Program-made: the position numbers and the translations under genes
Part shown: one piece after another, positions 9,727-27,319 of the stretch
Position numbering within the stretch: the stretch's first letter is position 1
How the letters are laid out: the number at the start of each line of letters is the position of its first letter
Notes under the pieces: generated by a model
The model's database searches: none
What the model was told of the DNA's origin: nothing
The model's input: the letters and a program-made list of their open reading frames with translations, nothing else
DNA from: Bacteroidota bacterium
GTDB taxonomy: Bacteria; Bacteroidota; Bacteroidia; Chitinophagales; UBA2359
Assembly (NCBI GenBank): GCA_020631245.1
Contig: JAHDHP010000017.1
Span: 1-27,556, forward strand
DNA: 27,556 nt
Reading direction: 5' to 3'

Positions 9727-9950
9727 TGAGTGAGGGATAGTAGTGGTAGCTTGACGAAACAGCCGCTTTGTGAAGTAATGACTAGCAGGGCTGACAGCGG
9801 AAGACACTGCTAGGCATATACTGAACTAGCGGATGTGAGACAACTACAAACGAATAGCCCGACCTGTATAAAAAAAGTGTGATTTTATGCCCCCAGCGAA
9901 GACGCTGGCGGGAACATGAAATCACACTTTTTTTATACAGGGCACTCCCA
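9727..9950 (+). repeat. B-element copy (structured intergenic repeat: conserved scaffold plus variable hairpin)
   Basis: 'gtgagggatagtagtggtagcttgacgaaa..ctagcagggctgac..gacactgctag..acaaacgaatagcccgacc'. A 22-bp perfect hairpin follows ('ctgtataaaaaaagtgtgattt' / 'aaatcacactttttttatacag'). Ends with 'gggcactccca'. Confidence 0.75.
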
Positions 9951-11440: not shown

Positions 11441-11495
11441 TGTGCAGGGGTGCACAAAATGCGCAATACTTCAAAAGAGGTGTTGCGCTTTTTTA
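11441..11495 (+). terminator. Tandem hairpins with a T-run. Putative intrinsic terminator between convergent genes.
   Basis: 'tgtgcaggggtgcaca' hairpin. Then 'gcgcaatacttcaaaagaggtgttgcgc' (stem gcgcaa/ttgcgc) followed by 'tttttt'. Confidence 0.5.
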
Positions 11496-11631: not shown

Positions 11632-13662
11632 TTAAAGGATAATCACTCCAGGTAACTTCTCTTGTAAGTTTGCTATTTCAAACCCCTTTCTTCGATCTAG
11701 CAAACCACCTACATTAATGCGTTTTAAGTTAGGCAATTGACTTATTACCTCTGGTAACTCACTAAAGCTAGTATGCTTTATATCTAAATAAGTGAGGTTT
11801 TCCAATTGAGCAAAATCAGCAGGTAATGAGGAAATCCAAGTAAATCCAAGATATAATTGTTGTAGGTTTTTGAGACGCCCAATTCCTTCGGGCATAGAAC
11901 GAAACTCATGATGACTAAGTATTAAACATTCTATATCTTCTAATTCATAGATGATAGTCGGAAATTCTTTTAGAGACATATATTGCAGGTTCAAGCGTTT
12001 TTGGTTGTAAAGAGGACTCAAGATTTCCATCTTTTTTTCCTTCGACACCTCTTTGCTTTCCAACAAAATATCCGCACAACGATTATAACGCTTATACACT
12101 ACCTCCGCTATTTTCCAAGCTGGGATACCACTTGTTCGTGCGTTATCATCCATTTTTCGACGCAGAAAGTAAGCCATTTTATTAGGCTCAAATTTTTTAT
12201 GCTTCAACTTCATCGCTGACTGCATCTTTTCATCTCCATACAACTTTAACAACTTCTTGGCTTCTGCTCGATTAGTCCGACTTGTTCCAATCAAATAATT
12301 GATATACACTAATGGAATGAGTTCTTTGGGCAATCCTCCTCCTCGCATCATTTGTAAAGCAATTCCCACATTATCATCATCACCCGTTTTCATTAAGGTC
12401 TCAATCTGTTCGATGAAACCATTCTCCTCGACTGTCGCATCCAATAAATAGGCATCTTCTACTTCATTAAAGTAGCTCTGTAATTCTACATCTGTTACAA
12501 AAACAATCCCCTCTTTGCCCAATCCTTCTACATACTTACTATGCTTTCCAAGCAATACATGGGTGGTATTTTTAGTCACCTTCGACCCTAATTTTGCTTG
12601 TAAGCCTTCTAGTTTTTCTTTGATTTCTTTGCGGGTAAAAATAGCCCGACCAAACATTGCCAACTCGTCACCTGCCTGAATAGGCCGGTCTTTTAACGAA
12701 GGACTTTTTAAATACTTCTTTGCATTTTTAAAAGCACGTTCACTATTCATGGGCAAAATAGCCGCTATTTCTGCTCGCGAATAAGTCGTTAACAAATCTT
12801 CTTTTGCCCCCTCATATACTTCGTAAATCGGATATCGCATTTCTTTGGGAACCTTCTTCTTACCTAGAAATTCCAACAAATCATTAAAGTCTCTTTCTGT
12901 TATCCCTGCTGGAAGAATATTCGCTCCTACAGAAACTCGTGATAATTTTGGAAAATAAAGTAAGCTTTTCTGAAAGCCTTCTATTCGATTTCTAAAAATG
13001 CTTAAAAATTCAAGGGCTTCTAGTTGGGTCAAAAAATCAGGTATAGTAGTCAATTGATTCGCTCCAATAACCAAATCTCTCAAAGCACTACATTTACTCA
13101 ATTCTGCTGGCAATTCTGTTAGCTCCATACGTCCTGCGTATAATTGCTCCAATTTGGTCAATTGACCTATTTTGGGGGAAAGAACCTTGATTGGGTTTTG
13201 AGGAATACGTAAAAAAACTAGATTTTCTAAATCGAATAACTCATCGGGTAATTCGGTTAACAGGTTGTTGCCAAGTATTAGGTGCTTTAAGCTTTTACAT
13301 TTTCCAATTTCAGGTGGAATAACAGTCAATTGGTTACCACTTATATCCAAGTACTCTAACTGTGTTAAATTACCAATACTTGCAGGTATTTCTTTGATCT
13401 TATTACTAGAAACATTCAAACGTTTTAGCGACGGGAAATCACCTAAGTTACTAGGAAGTGCTTCCAGCTTATTGTTGTTGTAATTAATATACTCTAGCTT
13501 CGTTAACTGCACCAACTCTGCTGGAAATTCGCTCATCGCATTGTAAGCAAAATTCAATGACTCCAAATTCACACATTCCAATATATTTTTAGGAAAATGT
13601 TTTCGATTGGTACTTTGTTTATATATAGCTTTTATCTCTTTAGGATCTTCGTTTAATTTCAT
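11632..13662 (-). CDS. LRR protein paralog 1. N- and C-terminal leucine-rich repeats flank a central BRCT-like / 'GGGLP' module.
   Basis: 676 aa. Repeats of the form 'LxxLxLxxNxLxxLPxxIGxL'. Central 'KNTTHVLLGKHSKYVEGLG' (BRCT-like) and 'ALQMMRGGGLPKELIPLVYINYL'. Shares its architecture with the ORFs at 22350-24623 and 24878-27319. Confidence 0.85.
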   Translation of the reverse strand: MKLNEDPKEIKAIYKQSTNRKHFPKNILECVNLESLNFAYNAMSEFPAELVQLTKLEYINYNNNKLEALPSNLGDFPSLKRLNVSSNKIKEIPASIGNLTQLEYLDISGNQLTVIPPEIGKCKSLKHLILGNNLLTELPDELFDLENLVFLRIPQNPIKVLSPKIGQLTKLEQLYAGRMELTELPAELSKCSALRDLVIGANQLTTIPDFLTQLEALEFLSIFRNRIEGFQKSLLYFPKLSRVSVGANILPAGITERDFNDLLEFLGKKKVPKEMRYPIYEVYEGAKEDLLTTYSRAEIAAILPMNSERAFKNAKKYLKSPSLKDRPIQAGDELAMFGRAIFTRKEIKEKLEGLQAKLGSKVTKNTTHVLLGKHSKYVEGLGKEGIVFVTDVELQSYFNEVEDAYLLDATVEENGFIEQIETLMKTGDDDNVGIALQMMRGGGLPKELIPLVYINYLIGTSRTNRAEAKKLLKLYGDEKMQSAMKLKHKKFEPNKMAYFLRRKMDDNARTSGIPAWKIAEVVYKRYNRCADILLESKEVSKEKKMEILSPLYNQKRLNLQYMSLKEFPTIIYELEDIECLILSHHEFRSMPEGIGRLKNLQQLYLGFTWISSLPADFAQLENLTYLDIKHTSFSELPEVISQLPNLKRINVGGLLDRRKGFEIANLQEKLPGVIIL

Positions 13663-13682: not shown

Positions 13683-13897
13683 TGGGCGTGCCCCCATTTT
13701 TGCCAATCAAGCTGTTAGGTTTTCCCAAGCTGACAGGTTTTGATTGGCAAAAATGGGGTCGGGCTTTCGGCTAATAGTTGTCTCTTAGTAGCCTGTTCAG
13801 CTAAACGCCTAGCAGTGTCTTCCTTCGTCAGCCCTGCTAGTCGAAGCTTCACAAGGCTCCTACTTCGCCAATCTTCCGCCTCTATCCCTCACGCGAG
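13683..13897 (-). repeat. B-element copy in inverted orientation, ending ~20 bp upstream of the LRR paralog 1 start codon
   Basis: Reverse complement reads 'tcgcgtgagggatag..gactagcagggctgacgaaggaagacactgctag..agcccgacc', then the hairpin 'catttttgccaatcaa..ttgattggcaaaaatg', then 'gggggcacgccca'. Confidence 0.75.
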
Positions 13898-14097
13898 ACA
13901 ATGACTGAATGAGCGAATGACTGCATGATTGAATGAGTGTTACGCAGATATTTTAATAAGAATACTTTTGTCCCAAAGGGACATTATCTTTAACTTGAGG
14001 CACCGCCTCAAGCAATAAAATCAGCCCGAAACGTCTATGTCCTGAAGGGACAAAAGCACTAAGACAGAACTTCTTAAGCAAGACAAGTTTATTAGCC

Positions 14098-14272
14098 ATT
14101 ATACATCGTTTATTATCGAATGTATCGCTTTTACAAAGGTATAACGCGTAAGGGCATCCCTTGTGGGTGCCTCCGATGGAACGATTGACGATTTACGTGC
14201 GACGAAGGTACTTTTTTCCTTCACTATACATCGTATATTGTCAAATGAATCGCCTTTATAAGGAACAACACC
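14098..14272. repeat. Pair of ~50-bp direct repeats (D-elements, 'ttatacatcgtttattatcgaatgtatcgcttttacaaaggtataac') flanking a C-element copy (14188-14222)
   Basis: 14100-14150 and 14223-14272 align directly with a few substitutions. 'gacgatttacgtgcgacgaaggtactttt' at 14188-14222 matches 64-100. Confidence 0.5.
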
Positions 14273-14694: not shown

Positions 14695-17600
14695 ATGCAG
14701 TTAATACAAGAAGTCCATTTGCATTTCCAAGATGCAAAGTCTGATAAGGTTTACGAAGTATATTTATACGAAGTAGGCAACGACCAATATCTCGTCAACT
14801 TCAAATACGGACGTCGAGGAGCCAATTTAAAAGAAGGCACCAAAACGGATCAACCTGTAAACCGAGCAAAGGCAGATAGTATATTTGAGAAGTTAGTAAG
14901 TTCCAAAACAAAGAAAGGTTATCAACAAGTACAAACTAATACTACTTCCTCCACTCCTCCCCCTCCAAGTTCCAATTGGGATCGTGAAGCTGCCACACAT
15001 GTCTTATTAACTTATCTTCAAGAAGCAATTAATAATCCAACGTCAAAGCCTTCTGAGCCAAAGAAAGACACTACTAATTCAAACAATAATAATCGTAATA
15101 AACCGCAGTCAGTTTGGGGAGCAATTACCAAATGGATAAAAGGGGAAGATACGACAAACAATAATCCTACTAGTAGTGCCACAAATGATGATACACCTCG
15201 TCAGCGACCAATAAGTCGAATTGTATGGCGTGTTGGAGAATTGCGTATAAAAGAAGCAACTCCACTCCTACTTCAGCTTCCTATTACCGACAAAATAATC
15301 GATCAATATAGCCTTGTTTGGGCATTGGGACGATGTGGTGATCCGAGTGCGATCCCTACTTTAGAAAATATGTTATCTGCTAAAGATGGGATTCCAGCCG
15401 TTCAACTATTGGCTGCCGAAGCCAAAATGGCTTTACTCGATAAAGCGGGGCAAAAATCTTGGAGTGAAGTGCTATTCAAAGCCCTTCCTATTGCCTTCCA
15501 AAATCATATACAAACTGAAAATATTGGAGGATTAATCAACTCCATCAATGAGCAAATAGAAGATAAAAAAGAAGCCTATCAACTCATTGCACATCTCTAC
15601 CTTATTTCTAACCATTATACAACTGCCAAACAAGCTGTTCATCAATGGGTGCAGGCTGCTCCTTTCAAAGGAAGTGGTTATTTCAAAAGTATTCGACAAT
15701 TATATAAAACAGCAGAATTCCGAGATGATGCAGCTTTATGGGGCTTGATAGTTCATCGTGTCTACACTTCTCGCGCTCCTTTCTACATCACTACTTGGAG
15801 TTATTACTATCGTAATGATGGTAAGATTCACTGTAACTCCGTGTTTTTCCCGAATGAAAATAGCAAGCGCAAAGGCTATGACAAGGATTACAACTATGTG
15901 CGTGGTGATTATATTCGAACTTTAGATGAGGTAAAAAAACCCAATTCACGGCTTGGCTTTTCGGAAGGAAGCAAAAAATATATTCAAAAACGAAGCTGGC
16001 GTGTTATCAAACGTCAAGCAGAAGCTGGAGAAGCAATGACCTATGTAAAAATGGCGGTTGGCTTTTTACTTGCCTTCACTGATGAGGACAAACAAGACAT
16101 TCCTCCTTTCGAATTTTATCGTTACAAACGCGTAGATGGTCGCTGGCGAAGTATTCGAGAATTGATCCACTACCCACCCTATGCTAACTATAGCACCTTT
16201 AATCATATTCTATATAGCAATAGCCCTCGTTTCGAATACCGAAACAATAATAATTGGGTGTATAAAAAAGAGGTGAGTAAAGATACGCCAGCTCCTACTA
16301 CTCGTGAAGAAGCTTACCCGCATTTCTGGGATGAAATACCACAAGGCATCCTTCACCTATTAGCAGAAAGCAACTGTGAAGCAGTCAATGAATTTGCTGT
16401 AAAAGCAGCAAAAGCGAATCTTAATAAGATAACTCCTCTCATCAATGTAGCATTTATCAAATTGCTACTCAATAAAAAATACAAGGATACTGCCTTATTG
16501 AGCATTGAACTAGCCAAAGCAATTTATGACCCATCTAATCCAGATACAGAGCTTATTTTAGCTCTCTTGAATGCAGTTGTACCAGAAGCGCGAAATTTAG
16601 GACTAGAGTGGTTACGCGTACAAAAAGATTTTTATTTCCAAGATGCTGATTTTGTAACGGCTTGTGTATTCAATCCTCATAAAGATATTCAAGAGGAATT
16701 AGACAACTTGCTAGGTAATCATACCTTTAGTGATGATCTAAATACTGCTATTGTTGCCAAAGTAACCGCTCGTTTATTGGCTTATCCTGCCGAAGTTACC
16801 GACGAAGATCGAAAAGCGATATTACAGGCAGCCGAATACCTCAATAAACACTTTACAGCTACACTTCAGCAAACGAGTATACAAACCATTCAGGATTTCT
16901 TGGACCACCCTGTTTCTGAGGTCAAAGTTTTTGGAGCCAAAATATTACTCAATCACCCTACTGATATAAAAGACTTACCTGAACAAACCATTGCTTCATT
17001 GATTAATGGGGAGTCAGCAGAAATGCGAGCAGTAGGAACACAATTACTAGGAAAACTTCCAAAAGAAGAATTACTAAAGAAGCAAGAATTACTAAAAGAA
17101 CTGTGTTTATCACCTCATCCAGAGGTACGTCAAAGCATCCAAAAAGTCATTGCCGAATTAGCCAATGAAAACAAGGAGTTTGGAGATAGTTTTACCCAAC
17201 AAATTGTTCCTCAATTATTGAAGCGAGAAGAACACGAAGGACGTGATACAGATATAAGTACCCTATTAAAAGATCATTTGAGTGCGCATCTACCTACCAT
17301 TCCTTTGCGTATGATTCTCAAATTGATTTACTCGCCTCGCCAAGCTGCCAATCAAATGGGTGGATATTTACTGGTCAGCCATGTTAAAGAACCTGACCTG
17401 AAAATGCGACAAATTGTACGCTTGGCAAATCATGAAATGCAGGAAATACGCGATTGGGTAAAAGCAGCTTACAATAATAATATTCCACGAGTTAAATACG
17501 AACTCAAAGAATCGATTCGCTTAGTGGATGCCAAATGGGATGATAGTCGTGAGTTCGCTTTCAACTATTTCCGTCAACAACTGAGCAAAGAAGATTGGAC

Positions 17601-18075
17601 GCCAGATATTTTGGTGAGTATTTGTGATAGTGTCAATGTACCTGTACAGCAATTTGGGAAAGAAATGATTACTCGCTTTTTTGAAGAGAAAAACGGCGAA
17701 CAATATCTCCTTCAGCTTAGTCAACATCCTACTGCTGATCTCCAAAGCTTTGCCACCAATTACTTGGATCGTTTCGCCTCTGATAATCCAGAAAATATCG
17801 TCAAACTAGAATTATATTTCGTTACTGTACTATCTGGTGTTAATAAGTCAAGAGTGGCTAAAAAACGCATCTTCGAATTCTTGAGAAAAGAGGGTTTGAA
17901 GAGTGAAGAAACAGCTAAACTGGTAGCGGGAATCCTAAAAAGACAATCAGCTACTATGGCAATTGGAGATAAGGCAAAGTGTATCAGTATTATGCGTGAT
18001 TTAGATGCCATTTATCCGAATTTAGAGTTGCCAATAAAGGTAAAAGAAGTAGCAGATTTCCCAATAAATACGTAA
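14695..18075 (+). CDS. WGR-domain protein with an S/T/N/P-rich linker, HEAT-like repeats and a long C-terminal region (MolR / DUF4132-like architecture)
   Basis: N-terminal WGR signature 'KVYEVYLYEVGNDQYLVNFKYGRRGANLKEGTK..KGYQQV'. Low-complexity segment at ~aa 80-180. PBS-lyase/HEAT-like 'WALGRCGDPSAIPTLENML'. 1126 aa, ATG start. Confidence 0.85.
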   Translation: MQLIQEVHLHFQDAKSDKVYEVYLYEVGNDQYLVNFKYGRRGANLKEGTKTDQPVNRAKADSIFEKLVSSKTKKGYQQVQTNTTSSTPPPPSSNWDREAATHVLLTYLQEAINNPTSKPSEPKKDTTNSNNNNRNKPQSVWGAITKWIKGEDTTNNNPTSSATNDDTPRQRPISRIVWRVGELRIKEATPLLLQLPITDKIIDQYSLVWALGRCGDPSAIPTLENMLSAKDGIPAVQLLAAEAKMALLDKAGQKSWSEVLFKALPIAFQNHIQTENIGGLINSINEQIEDKKEAYQLIAHLYLISNHYTTAKQAVHQWVQAAPFKGSGYFKSIRQLYKTAEFRDDAALWGLIVHRVYTSRAPFYITTWSYYYRNDGKIHCNSVFFPNENSKRKGYDKDYNYVRGDYIRTLDEVKKPNSRLGFSEGSKKYIQKRSWRVIKRQAEAGEAMTYVKMAVGFLLAFTDEDKQDIPPFEFYRYKRVDGRWRSIRELIHYPPYANYSTFNHILYSNSPRFEYRNNNNWVYKKEVSKDTPAPTTREEAYPHFWDEIPQGILHLLAESNCEAVNEFAVKAAKANLNKITPLINVAFIKLLLNKKYKDTALLSIELAKAIYDPSNPDTELILALLNAVVPEARNLGLEWLRVQKDFYFQDADFVTACVFNPHKDIQEELDNLLGNHTFSDDLNTAIVAKVTARLLAYPAEVTDEDRKAILQAAEYLNKHFTATLQQTSIQTIQDFLDHPVSEVKVFGAKILLNHPTDIKDLPEQTIASLINGESAEMRAVGTQLLGKLPKEELLKKQELLKELCLSPHPEVRQSIQKVIAELANENKEFGDSFTQQIVPQLLKREEHEGRDTDISTLLKDHLSAHLPTIPLRMILKLIYSPRQAANQMGGYLLVSHVKEPDLKMRQIVRLANHEMQEIRDWVKAAYNNNIPRVKYELKESIRLVDAKWDDSREFAFNYFRQQLSKEDWTPDILVSICDSVNVPVQQFGKEMITRFFEEKNGEQYLLQLSQHPTADLQSFATNYLDRFASDNPENIVKLELYFVTVLSGVNKSRVAKKRIFEFLRKEGLKSEETAKLVAGILKRQSATMAIGDKAKCISIMRDLDAIYPNLELPIKVKEVADFPINT

Positions 18076-18080
18076 TGTAG

Positions 18081-18100
18081 AGACCTTGCGTGCAAGGTCT
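18081..18100 (+). other. Short perfect hairpin between the WGR and SWIM genes
   Basis: 'agaccttgcgtgcaaggtct' is an 8-9-bp palindromic stem. No T-run follows, so it is not called a terminator. Confidence 0.3.
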
Positions 18101-18163
18101 AAATAAAAATATTACGTACAACATCTGATTCGCCAATAAACAAAATAAAAAATAACACCCAAT

Positions 18164-19804
18164 ATGTTATTCAATTACAAATATAGTGGAAGTACTTCAG
18201 TAGAGAGCAATAGTAGCTCTACCAATATGTCTTTCGCACCAGATACGCTTCGAGAACCCACCTTTTTTCGAGGTACACTAGCCAAAAACATTCCCTTTCG
18301 GGAAGCTATCTCTGCGCTTCATGATGTAGTAGTATCTGACCTACGTTGGAAACCCAAAGATCGCGAGGAATATAAAGCTTGGGCAGCACAACAAGAACAA
18401 CTATACCTAGAAACGATACAGTCTCAAAAAAGTGCTAATGAGGAAAAAATTAAGGAAGTACGTGCCAAGTTAAATGTCTTAAATGACCAGTCAAATGCCA
18501 TCATGGCTCCTTATTATACTGCACGACGAAAGTACTTCGACTATATCTACAAAAAAGATCGTGACGCTTGGTTTGTACTAGATCCAGTCATTACTGTACA
18601 CCCTGACGAAATCTTTTACGAGTGTTTTAGCCAAGATGAATCCACTTATGGACGCTTGGGTTGTAGCTATGAGGTCTTTAAAAATATCAACGAATTTGAG
18701 TGCGGTACTACGAATATCGACTACTCGGATGCCCTATACAAAGAATTTCAAAAAATACGCGACTACAAAGAAACTGACTTTGTTGTTGACCCAAGTGGCT
18801 TTGAAGTAACCACTGAAAACGAAGACACTTACAAAGAGCTAAAGATTGACCTCCCAGATAGTTGGGTACGTGGCTTCTTACAAGTAAGCTCAGCCATGAC
18901 ACTCGACACTACTGAGTTTAATCTACATCCTCTCGATGTCTACAATTTCTTATTCATTCTCAAACGTTTCAAAGAGAAAAAAGGACCTCGTTCCATTCGC
19001 TTCAAATTGAAACCAGGAGCACCTATCAAAGCTGTGTTTGAGCCGTGGAATTATGAAATAGTTTGTGATCGTAGTATTTACCCAGGAAACGAAGAGAAAG
19101 AAATCCGCATTTGGGGACGCCGTCGCCTACTAATTTTGGAACGTCTTATTCCTGTAACCAAAACCTTCAAAGTACGCCTTTTAGGAACAGGACTCCCCTC
19201 TTTCTTTATCGCTGATTTAGGAAATATGTCCTTTACATTAGGTTTATCGGGCTGGACTAAAAACGACTGGTCACGAGCAGGCAATTTCGACTTGATGGCT
19301 CCACGTGCCGAAGTCGATTTATTCACCAAGAACAAAGTCTTCCAATCACTCAAAGAAGACTGGCGCATGTCGGCAGATGATTTGTCGAAGAAAATGAAAC
19401 TCGACAAAGCCATCATTACAGGTGCATTATCTGCCTACACACAAGCAGGAAGTGTTATGTACGATATGAACAAAGACATGTATCGAGTACGAGAGCTAAG
19501 TCGTGAGCCACTACCTTTTGAGAAGCTTCGTTTTTCGAATGAGCGTGAACAACTTGCCAACGAATACCTCAAAGATGAGGCAGTAAAAGTGGAAGTAGAA
19601 TATCCAGGTGATGGCGTGAAAAAACTGAAAGGAGTGGTTGAAAGTCGCTCCAATCGAAAGAAATTTAATACCGAATTGGTGATTGATGGCGACCAGCGTT
19701 TGGTCAAAGCCAACTGCAATTGCCGATTCATACAAAAAAACAAATTGTTTAAAGGTCCTTGTGAGCATATTCTAGCCACCCGCTTAAAAAGCAATCAAGG
19801 ATAA
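18164..19804 (+). CDS. SWIM zinc-finger protein (YehQ-like)
   Basis: C-terminal CxC-x(n)-CxH signature 'CNCRFIQKNKLFKGPCEHILATRL'. 546 aa. Its stop codon lies about 10 bp before the first unit of the repeat array. Confidence 0.8.
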   Translation: MLFNYKYSGSTSVESNSSSTNMSFAPDTLREPTFFRGTLAKNIPFREAISALHDVVVSDLRWKPKDREEYKAWAAQQEQLYLETIQSQKSANEEKIKEVRAKLNVLNDQSNAIMAPYYTARRKYFDYIYKKDRDAWFVLDPVITVHPDEIFYECFSQDESTYGRLGCSYEVFKNINEFECGTTNIDYSDALYKEFQKIRDYKETDFVVDPSGFEVTTENEDTYKELKIDLPDSWVRGFLQVSSAMTLDTTEFNLHPLDVYNFLFILKRFKEKKGPRSIRFKLKPGAPIKAVFEPWNYEIVCDRSIYPGNEEKEIRIWGRRRLLILERLIPVTKTFKVRLLGTGLPSFFIADLGNMSFTLGLSGWTKNDWSRAGNFDLMAPRAEVDLFTKNKVFQSLKEDWRMSADDLSKKMKLDKAIITGALSAYTQAGSVMYDMNKDMYRVRELSREPLPFEKLRFSNEREQLANEYLKDEAVKVEVEYPGDGVKKLKGVVESRSNRKKFNTELVIDGDQRLVKANCNCRFIQKNKLFKGPCEHILATRLKSNQG

Positions 19805-19814
19805 ACAAACGAAA

Positions 19815-20001
19815 GAGCTTGCAATCTATGGGCGGTGTATCACCGCTTTTGTTGACAATCTTAGCATACACCACTAGCCGTCTCTTTAAGATGCGATCTA
19901 GCACTACTATCGGGTTTTCTGGCTCGATTTCATAAATCAAAACCCGATAGTAGTGCGAGATCGCTTGGAGTTGAGTCATCTAGTACCGAGCTTCATCGAA
20001 G
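19815..20001 (+). ncRNA. Array unit 1 (putative retron ncRNA). Unique hairpin at 19893-19974.
   Basis: 26-bp stem 'gcgatctagcactactatcgggtttt' / 'aaaacccgatagtagtgcgagatcgc' with one mismatch. 20-nt loop 'ctggctcgatttcataaatc'. Confidence 0.6.
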
Positions 20002-20055
20002 CCTTTTCGTTTCATTCTTTATTTCGTTATTTGACATTTTTAAAACCATACGCAC

Positions 20056-20242
20056 GAGCTTGCAATCTATGGGCGGTGTTTCGCCGTTTTTGTTGACAAT
20101 CTTAGCATACACCACTAGCTACCTCTTTAAGTTGCGTACTATCAGATATATTCGGTTTTCTGTTTGGCTTTCGTCAAGCTAAACCGAATATATCTAATCG
20201 TCCGCTTGGAGTTGAGTCATCTAGTACCGAGCTTCATCGAAG
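20056..20242 (+). ncRNA. Array unit 2. Unique hairpin at 20134-20205.
   Basis: Basal 'gcg/cgc', then an interior loop. 15-bp perfect stem 'agatatattcggttt' / 'aaaccgaatatatct'. Loop 'tctgtttggctttcgtcaagct'. Confidence 0.6.
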
Positions 20243-20276
20243 TACACGCGTATGGTTCTCGTAATTTACACCTACT

Positions 20277-20465
20277 GAGCTTGCAATCTTTGGGTAGTGT
20301 TTCGCTACTCTTGTATACAATCTTAGCATACACCACTGGCCACCTCTTTAAGGTGCGAGACAATGCAAGATGGTGCAGTTTTCGGCATGTCTTTCGTAAA
20401 GAAAAACTGCACCATCTTACAGTCTCGCTTGGAGTTGAGTCGTCCAGTTCTGAGCTTCATCGAAG
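20277..20465 (+). ncRNA. Array unit 3. Unique hairpin at 20355-20427.
   Basis: 'gcgagac' / 'gtctcgc' basal stem, then an interior loop. 16-bp stem 'aagatggtgcagtttt' / 'aaaactgcaccatctt'. Loop 'cggcatgtctttcgtaaagaa'. Confidence 0.6.
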
Positions 20466-20508
20466 TAAACAGGTGTAAATTACTTATTCAACTATTTCAC
20501 ACAAGAAA

Positions 20509-20696
20509 GAGCTTGCAATCTTTGGGCGGTGTATCACCGCTTTTGCTGACAATCTTAGCACACATCACTGACTGCCTCTTTAAGTTGCGTGATAGACAAC
20601 TATGTCGGAATTCCTGTTCGGTTTTCGTAAACCGATTTCCGACATAGTTATCATCCCGCTTGGAGTTGAGCCATCCAGTACCGAGCTTCATCGAAG
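20509..20696 (+). ncRNA. Array unit 4. Unique hairpin at 20587-20659.
   Basis: Basal 'gcg/cgc', then an interior loop. 14-bp stem 'aactatgtcggaa' / 'ttccgacatagtt'. Loop 'ttcctgttcggttttcgtaaaccgat' with the nested mini-hairpin cggttt/aaaccg. Confidence 0.6.
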
Positions 20697-20759
20697 TACA
20701 CTTGTTGTGAATAGTTGATTTTTTAACACCACTTTTTCTCATTAAAAAATTGTTTTATT

Positions 20760-22283
20760 TTGTCTCAACCCAAAACTCGACAAGAACTATACGAACAAAT
20801 TCGTCAAACATCTAAGGCAGAGTTTATTTTATCAGAAATGATTCGACTTGGATTTTGGGAGGAAGGAGATGGGCAACCTTCTCTTCCTACTGCATTCATT
20901 AAAGAACGTGCTGATTTACACCGTGAACTCAGCAAGTTGATGTCTACTGCGCGAAAGCTGGACAATCCAGACCAAGTGCTAAAAGAGTATCGTCAAAAAC
21001 GCCTTAAAGAGTCGAACGAAAAACAACAGGAAAATCGAGAAAGACGAGAAAAAGAACGCTTAGAACGAGCCGAAAAATGGAAGGAGCGAAAAAGTAAAGA
21101 GATTGTTTACTTAGGTGAAGAAATTTCAGGTGGATTAAATGAAACCGACGCGAATGAAGAACAACTCAAGCGTTTTGGTTTACCCAACTTTGAAAACGCT
21201 GCGATTTTAGCGGAAGCAATGGGAATTGATTTGGGGAAATTGCGCTTTTTGGCTTACAACCGTAAAGTGAGTAAGGTATCGCACTACAAACGCTTTTACA
21301 TGGCTAAAAAGTCGGGAGGCAAACGACTCATTTCTGCTCCGATGCCACAGCTCAAAGGTGCCCAATATTGGGTATTAGAAAACATTCTAAACAAAGTCAA
21401 TATTCACGAAGGGGCGCATGGTTTCCGTCAAGGGCATTCGATTGTCTCTAATGCTCAAAATCACGTCGGACAGGATGTAGTGATTAACTTCGATTTCAAA
21501 GATTTTTTTCCCACTATTACTTTTAAGCGGGTAAAAGGCTGTTTTGTCAACTTGGGCTATTCGGAGCAAATCGCAACCATCTTTGCAGCCCTTTGCACCG
21601 AACCCGATGTAGATGAGGTCGAAATGGATGGACATACTTATTATGTCGCTAAAGGACCGCGTCACCTTCCACAAGGCGCGCCTACCAGTCCTGCATTGAC
21701 CAATATAATTTGCTATAAACTTGATGCACGCATGGCGGGTATGTGCAAAGTGCTAGGTTTTAATTATTCGCGTTATGCGGATGATATGAGTTTTTCTGCT
21801 TCAGGTGATGCGGTTAAAGATGTGGGACGACTCATTTGGTCGGTTCATCAAACTGCCGAATCGGAAGGCTTTATGATTCATCCTGATAAAACGCGGGTGA
21901 TGCGCAAAAACCAACAGCAAGAGGTGACTGGCATTGTCGTGAATGAGCAATTGGGGATTGATCGGAAGGAGTTGAAAAAATTTCGAGCTTTATTACACCA
22001 AATTCGCCAAACAGGTATGGCTGGTAAGACCTGGGGGGCTGGTAAGGATTTGGCTGCTTCTATCTGGGGTTATGCTAATTTTGTGGCGATGGTCAAACCT
22101 GAAAAGGGGGCAAAATTGGTCGCTGAAGTGAAGCAAATTTTAGGTAAACAAACGCCTAGTAAGCCTGCTGGTTCGTCGGAAGGAGAAAAAGATTTGGCTC
22201 GTAAAATTGCAGCGGAGAAGGAACGATTAGAGCAAAAGAAGAAGGAGGAAGATGATAAAAAAGATAATTGGAAAATGTGGTAA
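20760..22283 (+). CDS. Retron-type reverse transcriptase with a ~160-aa N-terminal coiled-coil extension and a ~100-aa K/E-rich C-terminal extension
   Basis: RT motifs 'KRLISAPMPQLKGAQYWVLENIL', 'FRQGHSIVSNAQNHVGQDVVINFDFKDFFPTI' (NAxxH), 'LPQGAPTSPALTNI', 'YSRYADDMSFS' (YADD) and 'QEVTGIVVNEQLGI' (VTG). The ORF begins at a TTG at 20760. The first in-frame ATG is at 20838. Confidence 0.85.
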   Translation: MSQPKTRQELYEQIRQTSKAEFILSEMIRLGFWEEGDGQPSLPTAFIKERADLHRELSKLMSTARKLDNPDQVLKEYRQKRLKESNEKQQENRERREKERLERAEKWKERKSKEIVYLGEEISGGLNETDANEEQLKRFGLPNFENAAILAEAMGIDLGKLRFLAYNRKVSKVSHYKRFYMAKKSGGKRLISAPMPQLKGAQYWVLENILNKVNIHEGAHGFRQGHSIVSNAQNHVGQDVVINFDFKDFFPTITFKRVKGCFVNLGYSEQIATIFAALCTEPDVDEVEMDGHTYYVAKGPRHLPQGAPTSPALTNIICYKLDARMAGMCKVLGFNYSRYADDMSFSASGDAVKDVGRLIWSVHQTAESEGFMIHPDKTRVMRKNQQQEVTGIVVNEQLGIDRKELKKFRALLHQIRQTGMAGKTWGAGKDLAASIWGYANFVAMVKPEKGAKLVAEVKQILGKQTPSKPAGSSEGEKDLARKIAAEKERLEQKKKEEDDKKDNWKMW

Positions 22284-24654: not shown

Positions 24655-24870
24655 TCGCGTGAGGGATAGTAGTGGTAGCTTAGCGAAGTAGAAAGGTAAT
24701 GAGGCTTGGACTAGCAGGGCTGACGAAGGAAGACACTGCTAGTACTTTAGCCGAATACTTTTTCTACGAGGTAACTACAAACGGATAGCCCGACCTCATT
24801 TTTGCCCATACAGATGCCACCAGCGTCCTGGCTGGTAGCATCTGTATGGGCAAAAATGGGGGCACGCCCA
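24655..24870 (+). repeat. B-element copy between two LRR genes
   Basis: 'tcgcgtgagggatagtagtggtagctt..gactagcagggctgacgaaggaagacactgctag..caaacggatagcccgacc'. Hairpin 'tttttgcccatacagatgc' / 'gcatctgtatgggcaaaaa'. Ends with 'gggggcacgccca'. Confidence 0.75.
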
Positions 24871-24877
24871 GATAAAT

Positions 24878-27319
24878 CTATGGCACAAAAATAATTTCAC
24901 AGTAGGGAATGATTTCTTGTCCTAACTGATAGAGTAATCGCTTTTGTTCTGGGTTAGTAGCTGAAAGGGTTAATTTACGTAAATTTTGCAGTTGTTGAAA
25001 GGATTCAGGGATTTCGGTGATATTATTATGAGAAATATCGAGGGTTTGGAGTTTGGTAAGTGGCGTTAATTCTTCTAAATCCCCATTATCTAGTTGAATA
25101 TCTCGTAGTATTAATTGACGTAACTGTGTTAGATTACTGAGTCCTTTGATTTGAAATTCATTATCTATTTCTGATAGTTCGAGTGATTCCAAGCCTTTGA
25201 TTTGAAATATATTATCTTGGAAACTATTGATCGCTTTTCTACCTCGCCAAACGATTTTTTTGAGGGCATTTAGCTCGGTAAAAGATGGTGGCATTTTCCA
25301 AAGACTGTTATGAATTAGTTGTAGTTCTTCTAATTGTTGAAGCTGATGTATATTCTTGGGCAAACTACCTAACATCGTTTTTTGAATAATGAGTTGGCGC
25401 AAGTTGGTCATGTTTCCGAGGGAATCTTGATCGGTTCCGCCCCAATAACAATCATTTATTTTTAAGATTTCCCAACGATTTTGTTGCCCAATAATGACAG
25501 GAAAATTGTCGAACCGCATATTATCAAGGCTCAATTCCTTGTTCACTTCGTACATAGAAAGTATCTGTAACTTACCACTGTCTTCGATATAGGTATCTTC
25601 CAACAATAAAGCGTGTATGTTGGACTTTACTCGCTCGATGAGGTGTTTGGTAAGGAGTGTTTGATCTAAATTTGTTTGTTTGGCAAGTAACTGAATCTTT
25701 TTGCCGATGGGTTCTGGATGTGGATCGTCGAGTCGCCAATTTGAATTGAGTGCGTAACTAAGTAAATAGGAGCCATTGAGTTGTAGTAATTTCCTTAAAT
25801 TTGTCCTTACTTTTCCTTTGGAAGTTTTGAAAATAACCATTAATAAGGGAAGCATTTCGGGAGGTACGCCTCCTCCTCGTAGCATTTCGATGGCTAATAA
25901 TATATTTTCATTTGTTTGATTATTAAGCAATATACTTACCTTTTTAACTAATGTTTCTCGCTCTTCATTCTCGCTCATTTTGATATATGCTTCTTCTTTT
26001 TCTTCGAGAAAAAAGAGTAATTGTTGTTCGTTGAGAAAAATTAAATTGCTGTAATTTAATGCGGGCATTTTTGTTTTGACGAACTTTCCAATGAGGACAT
26101 GGCTGGTATCTTTGTCGAAGGTATTGCTATACTTTATCTGTTGGGCTTCCAGCCGTTCTTGAATGGTTTTCTTTTTTTGTATAGTGTTTCCTAAAAAGGT
26201 AATTTTACTAGCTGACGATAGGTTTTGAGCATCAAAATGTTTACAAAGTGTTTGGACAATATTGTCTTGTACTATTTTGTGTGGGAAATGGAGGTATTCG
26301 AGTAGAAAATTGTGTGGTAATTGTTGAATATAGTCTTGGTTGTTGACAAATATTTGAAAGAGAGAATAACGAATTGAGAACGATGTATCTTGTTTTTTAA
26401 AACAGCGAATGAGCTTGTAAAATATGCGGTAATGTGGATCGGGCATAAATTTCTCATGCCCTTTTATATGCTTAATATTATTGAGTTGGAGTAACTCAAG
26501 GGGCATCTCCGTAATATTGGTTCCGCCTATTGCTAGGCTACGCAGCTTTTTTAACTTGCCAAATGTGGTAGGTAATTTTTGGATGGGATTGTTTGATAGT
26601 CCTAGTAATTTGAGTTGTTTGTAGTTGCCAATGTTTTGGGGTAATTTTTGAATTTGGTTATCATTTAGCTTTAGATTTTCGATGGTACTTTTTTGTTCAC
26701 TTCCTATTTCGGCTAAGGCAATGATTTTGTTTTTGGTAGCAACGATGGTATGCATGGAAGAATTGGATAATAAGGCAGCGGGTAAAATGCTTAATTGGTT
26801 TTCCTCTAACCATATTTCTTTTAGTTTTGGAGCGGTTCCTAGTCCTTTCTCAATTATGCTAATTGAATTGCAATTGACATTGATGATTTTGAGCTGTGGC
26901 AATTGAGATAAAATAGCAGGTAATATTTCCAGCTTATTACTTTGTATGACTAACTCCTCCAAGTTTTCACATTCTAAAATCTCTTCTCCAATATGACTTA
27001 TTTTATTAAAGCTTAGATCGAGCTTTTTGAGATATTTGAAATGTTCGATTCCTTTAGGCAAAGCCGTTAAGCGATTGTTTTGCATTTTCAAATGAGTAAG
27101 CTTGGTACAATCGCTAATACTTGGAGGAAATACTAATGTATTGGCGTCTCCGTATAAATTACGAATACTTAAGGACTCTAATTGCCTCAAATTTCCAATT
27201 TCTTTGGGTATTTCTTTGATGTCGTTATTACCCAATATTAAGGTTTTCAGCTTGGTATACTCAAATACCTCGGCAGGTATTTTATCCATTTTTTTATAGG
27301 AGAGATCGAGACGGGGCAT
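24878..27319 (-). CDS. LRR protein paralog 3. N- and C-terminal LRR blocks flank the central BRCT-like / 'GGGVP' module.
   Basis: 813 aa. 'KDTSHVLIGKFVKTKMP' and 'LAIEMLRGGGVPPEMLPLLMVIFK' are shared with the other paralogs. LRRs 'LxxLxLxxNxIxxLPxxxGxL' at both ends. Confidence 0.85.
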   Translation of the reverse strand: MPRLDLSYKKMDKIPAEVFEYTKLKTLILGNNDIKEIPKEIGNLRQLESLSIRNLYGDANTLVFPPSISDCTKLTHLKMQNNRLTALPKGIEHFKYLKKLDLSFNKISHIGEEILECENLEELVIQSNKLEILPAILSQLPQLKIINVNCNSISIIEKGLGTAPKLKEIWLEENQLSILPAALLSNSSMHTIVATKNKIIALAEIGSEQKSTIENLKLNDNQIQKLPQNIGNYKQLKLLGLSNNPIQKLPTTFGKLKKLRSLAIGGTNITEMPLELLQLNNIKHIKGHEKFMPDPHYRIFYKLIRCFKKQDTSFSIRYSLFQIFVNNQDYIQQLPHNFLLEYLHFPHKIVQDNIVQTLCKHFDAQNLSSASKITFLGNTIQKKKTIQERLEAQQIKYSNTFDKDTSHVLIGKFVKTKMPALNYSNLIFLNEQQLLFFLEEKEEAYIKMSENEERETLVKKVSILLNNQTNENILLAIEMLRGGGVPPEMLPLLMVIFKTSKGKVRTNLRKLLQLNGSYLLSYALNSNWRLDDPHPEPIGKKIQLLAKQTNLDQTLLTKHLIERVKSNIHALLLEDTYIEDSGKLQILSMYEVNKELSLDNMRFDNFPVIIGQQNRWEILKINDCYWGGTDQDSLGNMTNLRQLIIQKTMLGSLPKNIHQLQQLEELQLIHNSLWKMPPSFTELNALKKIVWRGRKAINSFQDNIFQIKGLESLELSEIDNEFQIKGLSNLTQLRQLILRDIQLDNGDLEELTPLTKLQTLDISHNNITEIPESFQQLQNLRKLTLSATNPEQKRLLYQLGQEIIPYCEIIFVP

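Follow-up and report, generated by a model that had tools for sequence, protein, structure and literature searches.

The B-Element, a Dispersed Intergenic Repeat of Bacteroidota with the Conserved Fold of a Putative Non-Coding RNA

1. Introduction

The B-element is a dispersed intergenic repeat of about 200 nt which occurs in four copies (B1 to B4) on a 27,556-nt stretch of DNA from a Bacteroidota bacterium (contig JAHDHP010000017.1 of assembly GCA_020631245.1; hereafter the window), and whose full copies share one three-way junction fold, with helices that are preserved by compensatory changes and with an invariant apex and invariant internal loops. We consider the chances to be about even that the B-element is a family of non-coding RNAs (ncRNAs) that has been amplified and is selectively maintained within mosaics resembling the bacterial interspersed mosaic elements (BIMEs), and that it descends from a conserved small RNA of Bacteroidota and Chlorobiota, with a hairpin, P3, that is specific to one lineage. 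The first-pass annotation of the window had named three options, namely a MITE (miniature inverted-repeat transposable element), a regulatory element like the repetitive extragenic palindromes (REPs) and BIMEs, or orphan structured RNAs. Of these, the third fits best; the hallmarks of a MITE are lacking and the likeness to REP/BIME repeats is only loose.

Dispersed repeats in bacteria are normally short palindromes or derivatives of insertion sequences (IS), and not amplified ncRNA genes. The B-element points to a class of structured RNA that Rfam does not contain and that, among the matches listed in our scan, is found at low copy number in several Bacteroidota and Chlorobiota genomes, while one lineage carries about one copy per 5–7 kb, with the structure kept in all copies examined. 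The covariation of this class is unusually clean, and its invariant apex looks like a putative binding site. If the copies are expressed, they would constitute, to our knowledge, the largest paralogous family of bacterial small RNAs, and if they were indeed spread via RNA, they would be a bacterial analogue of the short interspersed nuclear elements (SINEs) of eukaryotes. B copies also explain the fragmented assemblies of these genomes.

2. Common Fold, Covariation and Strand Specificity

Each of the full copies folds independently into the same three-way junction, consisting of P1, P2, P3 and a 3′ tail, with energies 5–11 standard deviations below those of shuffled sequences. P1 is a 5-bp closing helix joining the ends of the element, and P2 is a rod of about 130 nt, in which variable, covarying helices lie between invariant non-Watson–Crick internal loops (AUAGUA opposite GGAUAG, and GGU opposite ACAA). 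Other fixed positions are A6, between P1 and P2, and the GAC ahead of P3. The apex of the rod, GGGCUGAC-NNN-GGAAGACAC, shows no difference among the 73 copies in which it is covered, an invariance subject to an ascertainment effect, since the search pattern enforced the apex in most of them; its central triplet is variable (GAA in 38 copies, AGC in 20, GGA in 9 and others in 6). Five copies that were found by profile alone, and not by the pattern, also keep the apex exactly, and four of these differ from the pattern by a compensatory change from A-U to G-C in the adjacent stem pair. The helices, in contrast to the fixed apex and loops, are only about 80% identical between copies, and because of this difference, with the caveat of ascertainment, we read the conservation as purifying selection on putative binding surfaces in individual copies.

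Covariation was assessed on an alignment of 52 sequences from which P3 had been excised. RNAalifold predicts 43 pairs in this alignment, 31 of them with compensatory double changes. In an explicit count over 39 pairs, 96.3% of cells were paired, as against 83.4% in column shuffles, and double changes were present at 31 of the 39 pairs, amounting to 273 double-change cells versus 80 in the shuffles; none of 500 shuffles matched the observed value on any measure. When the partner columns were slid by 1–3 positions as a control, pairing fell to 25–39% of cells. The variants of P1 are all compensated (GCGUA/UACGC, GCGCA/UGCGC, GUGUG/CACAC, GCAUG/CAUGC and GAGUG/CACUC). P1 was located by requiring complementarity, so that its 100% pairing is partly circular, but the variant 3′ strands (UACGC, UGCGC, CACAC, CAUGC and CACUC) are seen at the homologous place between P3 and the following CCA in the raw listing.

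The pairing is also specific to one strand. G·U pairs stand against A·C mismatches at about 62 to 3 in P1 and P2, and at 82 to 11 in P3, and the sense fold is stabler than the antisense fold in 50 of 51 copies, which together imply that the structure matters in a single strand of a given orientation. Judged by these patterns, the B-element would work as a single strand, most likely as RNA. Compensatory and strand-specific changes in pairing, as are generally expected of a structured RNA, are thus both found.

3. Amplification in One Lineage and the Repertoire of P3 Hairpins

One genome per species was scanned with the apex motif, and at least 60 matches are listed. Among them, 56 come from a single assembly, the metagenome-assembled genome (MAG) of Bacteroidetes bacterium MAG-134 (JAHDCM01), where many copies are situated at contig ends; others are from Bacteroidia (L034), Chlorobiota (L036), Bacteroidales (L056) and a Rhizobiaceae bin of the same study as MAG-134 (L019). 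A profile search found 68 copies, and hence at least 68 in that MAG, in 345 kb of MAG-134 DNA, and the copies per genome probably number in the hundreds; 51 copies are full length (151–246 nt). Only the B-elements of the window match MAG-134, with 77–92% identity, and the window is therefore not part of JAHDCM01; when orthologous loci were sought, the window and the fetched MAG loci had no genes in common. Viral contigs, phage records and plasmid records gave no match to the B-element. The Rhizobiaceae sequence (JAHDEP010000312.1, 'Rhizobiaceae' MAG-184) is a 2.5-kb contig terminating in a B copy of the type characteristic of the Bacteroidetes MAG, and is probably mis-binned. Exact-protein look-ups of the flanking genes revealed no empty sites, the matches being short Logan contigs (SRR14415273-75). 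Those compared with the window, L061 and L063/L066 (SRR14415273), stop inside B copies, which indicates that the repeat family fragments assemblies.

P3 measures 45–103 nt in 49 copies, and it is dispensable, as two MAG copies (L005 and L038) have CCGAAGG or CCGUAAGG instead of the hairpin. About eight P3 classes can be distinguished, with a common stem base and different tips. The first-pass annotation had described a different, perfect hairpin of 17–22 bp in each copy. The hairpins of the window do belong to different classes, but the P3 stems of B3 and B4 are alike over their first ~13 nt, and the window classes recur in the MAG (B2 with L037 and L003, B4 with L060, B3 with L041 and L030), so that P3 is a limited, conserved repertoire and not hypervariable. 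The dimensions also need correction, for the window hairpins comprise 67–79 nt with 26–35 pairs and are near-perfect, about 6% of the P3 pairs of the family being G·U. P3 class is independent of scaffold similarity (Spearman rho 0.06), and the most similar scaffolds (93–95% identity) usually bear different P3 classes, from which we conclude that the P2 and P3 modules reassort. The possibility that P3 is an independent palindromic repeat was rejected, since it is confined to B copies in the sampled DNA, with the exception of a short tip motif, CCAGCG-NNNN-CGCUGG. A stand-alone hairpin similar to an intrinsic terminator (GCGCAATAC...GTGTTGCGC, then TTTTTT) is located between convergent genes of the window, at 11461–11488(+), and recalls the GCGCAAT... 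core found in P3 hairpins of class 1.

4. Element Ends

The first nucleotide, G1, is invariant in 51 of 51 copies and is preceded by a pyrimidine in 47 of 48, while the base following the P1 5′ strand is A in all 51. CCA stands directly after P1 in 43 of 51 copies, and the ten bases after CCA are 56% A, in both gene contexts. In the light of what is generally known about RNase P substrates, this Y/G1...C-CCA arrangement may be likened to a tRNA-like end or an RNase P processing signal. The similarity of the termini had been described as weak in the first-pass annotation, and the pairing of the ends (GCGUG/CACGC, and GAGUG/CACUC in B2) had been missed.

5. Relatives without P3 and a Possible Origin

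L034, L036, L062 and L056 also form the closed rod, in which the apex is unchanged and the helices differ through compensatory substitutions; the closing stem of L034 is found in the centroid structure and is absent from the minimum-energy structure. These relatives have no P3, L036 possessing only a short hairpin. L062 and L056 had been left out of profile building, and score E values of 1e-20 and 1e-10, respectively (nhmmer). L062 was the one additional P3-less relative obtained from a metagenome scan designed to pass over the multicopy type. L034 and L036 are located upstream of the same operon, which comprises DUF1858/DUF2249/TusA, a COX1-like protein, an FeS-assembly protein and Rrf2; L062 is upstream of a glutamyl-tRNA-synthetase-like open reading frame, the identity of which is read from a HIGH-type N-terminus, RFAPSPTGPLHIGG, alone; and L056 precedes a giant FG-GAP/MBG protein of the type IX secretion system (T9SS), a T9SS adhesin. 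The best-supported reading is that the ancestral form would have been a stand-alone rod RNA of about 145 nt, present in Bacteroidota and Chlorobiota in unrelated gene contexts.

Such an ancestral rod recalls the 4.5S RNA of the signal recognition particle (SRP) and 6S RNA in its rod shape, its paired termini and its stand-alone gene, and the conserved, irregular apex, with a potential for tandem G·A pairs, is reminiscent of SRP domain IV (GGAAG...). Unlike these RNAs, the B-element has no Rfam match up to E 10 and no 6S-type central bubble, and it is multicopy in this lineage. At Rfam gathering thresholds, no match was obtained with the window, L034, L036 or L056, and at E values up to 10, B2 and L034 gave only spurious miRNA-type hairpin matches, with no SRP, 6S or other model; ARAGORN detected no tRNA or tmRNA.

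6. A Possible Mechanism

According to the ncRNA reading, the P3-less rod RNA of ~145 nt would have risen by amplification to tens or hundreds of copies in the lineage of the window and MAG JAHDCM01, where P3 would have been gained as an expansion arm, its ~8 classes reassorting freely with the P2 scaffold. The sense strand would be transcribed, for some copies starting at promoter-like modules upstream of them and for the others through read-through, and the transcript might be trimmed, at the signal resembling an RNase P site or tRNA end, to a compact RNA whose limits are set by P1. A common protein partner would bind the apex and the invariant loops of P2, and P3 would provide stability or class identity. 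Copies would multiply and reshuffle at the DNA level, through recombination or gene conversion within mosaic intergenic repeats, and they would spread neither by cut-and-paste transposition nor through the retron that is encoded in the window (Section 7).

Several points weigh against this reading. Transcription is a step that we infer solely from strand-specific pairing, and no promoter (Bacteroidetes TAnnTTTG or TATAAT) is found at a fixed distance across the copies, the promoter signals being weak and heterogeneous. B4 begins only 33 nt from a divergent start codon and is antisense within a probable operon of leucine-rich repeat (LRR) genes, so that transcription of its sense strand may never take place. 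An intermediate of single-stranded DNA could likewise tolerate G·T wobbles, and much of the covariation could arise if, as in a selfish element, selection acted on source copies alone. We regard as conjecture the protein partner, the processing similar to that by RNase P and any role of P3, and it is not proven that the outgroup RNAs are low in copy number, as they are among the matches listed. The ascertainment of the apex, as described above, must also be counted here.

7. Alternative Explanations

A classical MITE, that is, an IS deletion derivative moved by a transposase that recognizes its terminal inverted repeats (TIRs), would agree with the size, the many copies, the intergenic placement and the complementary 5-nt ends of the B-element, but it is very improbable, as no target-site duplication (TSD), no TIR beyond the covarying 5-bp stem and no linked transposase or parent IS were found. 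Over 38 copies, the longest direct repeat in the 30-nt flanks averages 4.42 nt, compared with 4.48 ± 0.13 for shuffled pairings, in keeping with the failure of the first-pass annotation to define TSDs, and inverted similarity in the flanks past P1 is likewise at background (4.63, control 4.62). Helix-like covariation is seen in the terminal 5 nt, something that TIRs bound by a transposase do not require, the conservation of the element tracks structure and not termini, and homologous single RNAs exist in other phyla. The 66 neighbouring proteins of the MAG copies span 109 Pfam families, none of which occurs more than twice, with no enrichment of any neighbour gene, whether transposase, reverse transcriptase (RT) or LRR. 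We also rate as rather improbable a cis-acting element of the REP/BIME, enterobacterial repetitive intergenic consensus (ERIC) or Correia type, which would act within neighbouring mRNAs, with P3, able to fold on either strand, as a terminator, insulator or 3′-end stabiliser. All examined copies are intergenic, the 3′ (P3) end is separated from a convergent gene's stop codon by a median of ~17 nt in 25 of 48 copies, the P3 hairpins of classes 1 and 3 have the A-run/GC-stem/T-run form of bidirectional terminators and resemble the hairpin at 11461–11488, and the copies reside in mosaics of other short repeats, as in BIMEs. The proteobacterial REP/BIME and ERIC/IRU (intergenic repeat unit) repeats are further similar in that they have tens to hundreds of intergenic copies, hairpins with compensatory changes and mosaics with short motifs in alternating orientation, and lack TSDs. 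However, the tandem, divergent and convergent regions occupied by the 26 copies with both neighbours called are in the ratio 14:7:5, which equals random expectation, and orientation is unbiased. More than a quarter of the copies are between divergent gene starts, where a terminator is not needed, and about half of the P3 classes are U-run...A-run stems without a trailing U tract. REP units are palindromes of 20–40 nt at gene 3′ ends, whereas the B unit is a three-way junction of ~200 nt, with a 130-nt rod and invariant non-canonical loops and apex, and has no bias towards gene 3′ ends; the REP/BIME-like option of the first-pass annotation holds only loosely, for the intergenic, mosaic setting. 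A REP-associated tyrosine transposase (RAYT, TnpA-REP) was not seen among the neighbouring genes, which were sampled over 27.5 kb in this genome and 345 kb in the MAG. A terminator role would, moreover, leave unexplained the rod, its invariant loops, the sense-specific G·U pairs and the P3-less homologues in other phyla.

That the B-element is a selfish, non-autonomous mobile element, with the folded single strand as the substrate mobilised in trans, is in our judgement unlikely. It might be a SINE-like retroposon that arose from an ncRNA gene and is primed at the 3′ CCA or the A-rich tail, or a single-stranded DNA element similar to those of the IS200/IS605 or RAYT type, and the covariation would then reflect selection on source copies and not function at each locus. 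This would suit the high copy number, the contig breaks at copies, the random orientation and intergenic type, the unrelated neighbouring genes, the descent from a low-copy ncRNA, the A-rich 3′ tail after CCA and the way in which P2 and P3 reassort, which template switching would produce; in addition, an RT gene is present in the window. Against it, TSDs are absent, no near-identical copies were seen, with the top scaffold identity at ~95%, and not one of the 73 copies, the unascertained ones among them, has a mutated apex, which points to selection on individual copies. Similarity often reaches into the arrays and modules of the 5′ flank, which a transcript initiated at P1 would not carry, no RT or transposase occurs among the 66 neighbouring genes or in the 345 kb sampled, and strands are mixed within 27 kb, unlike in IS200/605-type elements. 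Eukaryotic SINEs, derived from tRNA, 7SL or 5S RNA, resemble the B-element in being amplified from a structured RNA gene and in their A-rich 3′ tail, subfamilies and copies in both orientations, and derivation from a small structured RNA gene is indicated here by the P3-less homologues (E 1e-10 to 1e-20, same fold). In the B-element, unlike in SINEs, the tail (56% A over 10 nt) is found without TSDs or an identified RT partner, the copies look individually constrained, and the 5′ flanks are often common. We know of no bacterial precedent for a SINE. The RT of the window belongs to a Type XIII retron at 14695–22283 (PADLOC WGR_XIII 1093 bits, SWIM_XIII 779 bits and RT_XIII 645 bits), matching the kind that Mestre et al. 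2020 (PMC7736814) described. Its gene set is complete, consisting of a WGR/HEAT protein, a SWIM protein and the RT (20760–22283), and the region between SWIM and RT (19803–20700) contains not one but four tandem msr-msd units of ~232 nt, every one of which has a long a1/a2 pair of its own and an msd hairpin that differs from the others. The B copies would be orphan retron ncRNAs if P2 corresponded to msr, P3 to msd and P1 to a1/a2, and if they were reverse-transcribed in trans by this RT, which we find scarcely credible. The first-pass annotation had seen the same plan in both, and the topology is indeed alike, running from a closing inverted repeat through conserved stem-loops to a long variable hairpin beside the 3′ closing strand, with a retron RT and its four cognate units only 2.4–20 kb away; but there is no sequence similarity between the B-element and the retron units, which form a Type XIII msr-msd array. 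The RT-mediated spread suggested by the first-pass annotation is speculation. The B-element has an invariant A after P1 and not a branching G, its closing stem is only 5 bp long and nearly constant, in contrast to the long, individual a1/a2 of the retron units, and its hairpin is dispensable, the P3-less members (L005 and L038) and outgroups (L034, L062 and L056) having no msd to copy. The retron units are directly upstream of the RT, whereas the nearest copy, B4, is 2.4 kb past it, with an LRR gene between, and no retron gene or RT was found near the 68 MAG copies, nor an RT within the 345 kb sampled.

A bolder proposal, which we regard as doubtful, is that a conserved small RNA of ~145 nt and RNP type was turned into hundreds of individually maintained genes, in each of which an invariant, putatively protein-binding scaffold is combined with one P3 from a limited set of exchangeable double-stranded arms. 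The family would then be either a modular RNA system whose specificity depends on P3, or the first bacterial repeat family that is SINE-like, derived from an ncRNA and propagated through its folded RNA.

8. Copies in the Window

The four copies are situated where the first-pass annotation had placed them, as is evident from motif counts and from the profile search, which recovers exactly these four, with no further degenerate copy, and refines their limits. GTGAGGGATAG occurs four times in the window, at 41–51(−), 9730(+), 13882–13892(−) and 24659(+), versus 0.21 expected, and the 32-nt core CTAGCAGGGCTGACNNNGGAAGACACTGCTAG occurs three times versus 0 expected; repeat finding and alignment return the same shared blocks that had been named before, and correctly so. 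B1, at 1–53(−), is truncated where the window begins (nhmmer E 2.4e-08, profile positions 1–52), and comprises the P1 5′ strand GCGTG (49–53) and the 5′ half of the P2 rod, with the remainder beyond the window start. B2 is a full copy at 9728–9950(+), beginning 2 nt past the stop codon of a peptidyl-prolyl isomerase (PPIase) gene. Its P1 strands are GAGTG (9728–9732) and the compensatory CACTC (9943–9947), followed by CCA at 9948–9950; the P2 rod spans 9734–9863, with the invariant apex at 9788–9807, and P3 (9864–9942) is a class 1 hairpin of 79 nt and 35 pairs, of the A-run/GC stem/T-run type. The minimum free energy (MFE) of the B2 fold is −99.9 kcal/mol (z −11).

B3 is a full copy at 13683–13894(−), with the P1 5′ strand at 13890–13894, the P2 rod at 13758–13888, the apex at 13815–13834, a class 4 P3 hairpin of 67 nt at 13691–13757, the P1 3′ strand at 13686–13690 and CCA at 13683–13685. 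It belongs to a basal-loop subfamily (AGGCGGAAGA / AUUAGCCGAAAG) that is also represented by the MAG copy L002, and it ends 23 nt upstream of the start codon of an LRR gene at 13662, being the copy that the first-pass annotation had described as ending some 20 bp before a start codon. B4, also full, occupies 24657–24870(+), between two minus-strand LRR genes and antisense to both; its P1 strands are at 24657–24661 and 24863–24867, with CCA at 24868–24870, the P2 rod at 24663–24794, the apex at 24717–24736 and a class 3 P3 hairpin of 68 nt at 24795–24862 (MFE −105.3 kcal/mol, z −9.7). The association with LRR genes that had been remarked upon is incidental, reflecting local gene content, as the MAG has no such enrichment.

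9. Flanking Repeats and Neighbouring Features

The distance from the 3′ end to a co-oriented start codon is 20–290 nt, or −15 and −12 nt for two of the copies. More DNA separates the element from its neighbour on the 5′ side, which is usually packed with other repeats, in the form of arrays of 7–8-nt units (AATCGTTCA, TCATTCAN, GTCGCAC and GGTTGAAC) that switch orientation and may form a hairpin of their own. These arrays are seen in most MAG copies, e.g., L037, L040, L016 and L008, and a 22-nt unit is present at least four times in L040. Some copies have a repeat of the reverse-complement type, TGATTGG, on the 3′ side, and small hairpins such as GGGCGACCACAAGGGAUCGCCC are found in 5′ flanks. 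Intergenic heptamer repeats of unknown function have been described in some Bacteroidetes, cyanobacteria and Beggiatoaceae (PMC4679880). In the window, the 5′ flank of B3, at 13895–13945(−), is an array of 8-nt direct repeats, C-A/G-N-TCATT, that continues up to P1, and that of B1, at 54–135(−), is a mosaic of GTCGCAC/CGTAAATCGT repeats and the module AAAAGTACTTCCGTCGCACG, which recurs at 14180–14215(−) and upstream of several MAG copies. The upstream module of B1 contains a sigma-70-like site (135→107, minus strand; ATGACA-17-TATAAT, 11 of 12 positions), which is the best such site of the first 9.5 kb, and a promoter-like module, TATAATG...AAAAG, is found upstream of a minority of copies, B1 included.

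At 14130–14260(−), the upstream mosaic known from 54–135(−) (TATAGTG...AAAAAAGTACCTTCGTCGCACGTAAATCGT... and the hairpin GGCACCCACAAGGGATGCC) is followed by GCGTTATACC in place of a B body, and may represent an unoccupied or decayed site. A further tandem repeat of ~50 nt, TATGGTCGCCCATTCTGGGCTATAAAAAAATTACCCTATTTTTTCTC, is present in L014 (150–400) and in L026, upstream of a minus-strand copy, together with a conserved module, CAGCCTAGCCGCTG...ACCACCAGCGATGACGCTGGCGG, which is located between the TATAATG box and the heptamer array and could be another small structured RNA. The LRR proteins encoded at 11632–13662(−) and 24878–27319(−) have weak matches to the BRCT domain (E 2.6e-05 and 2.2e-04, respectively), an unusual combination for bacteria.

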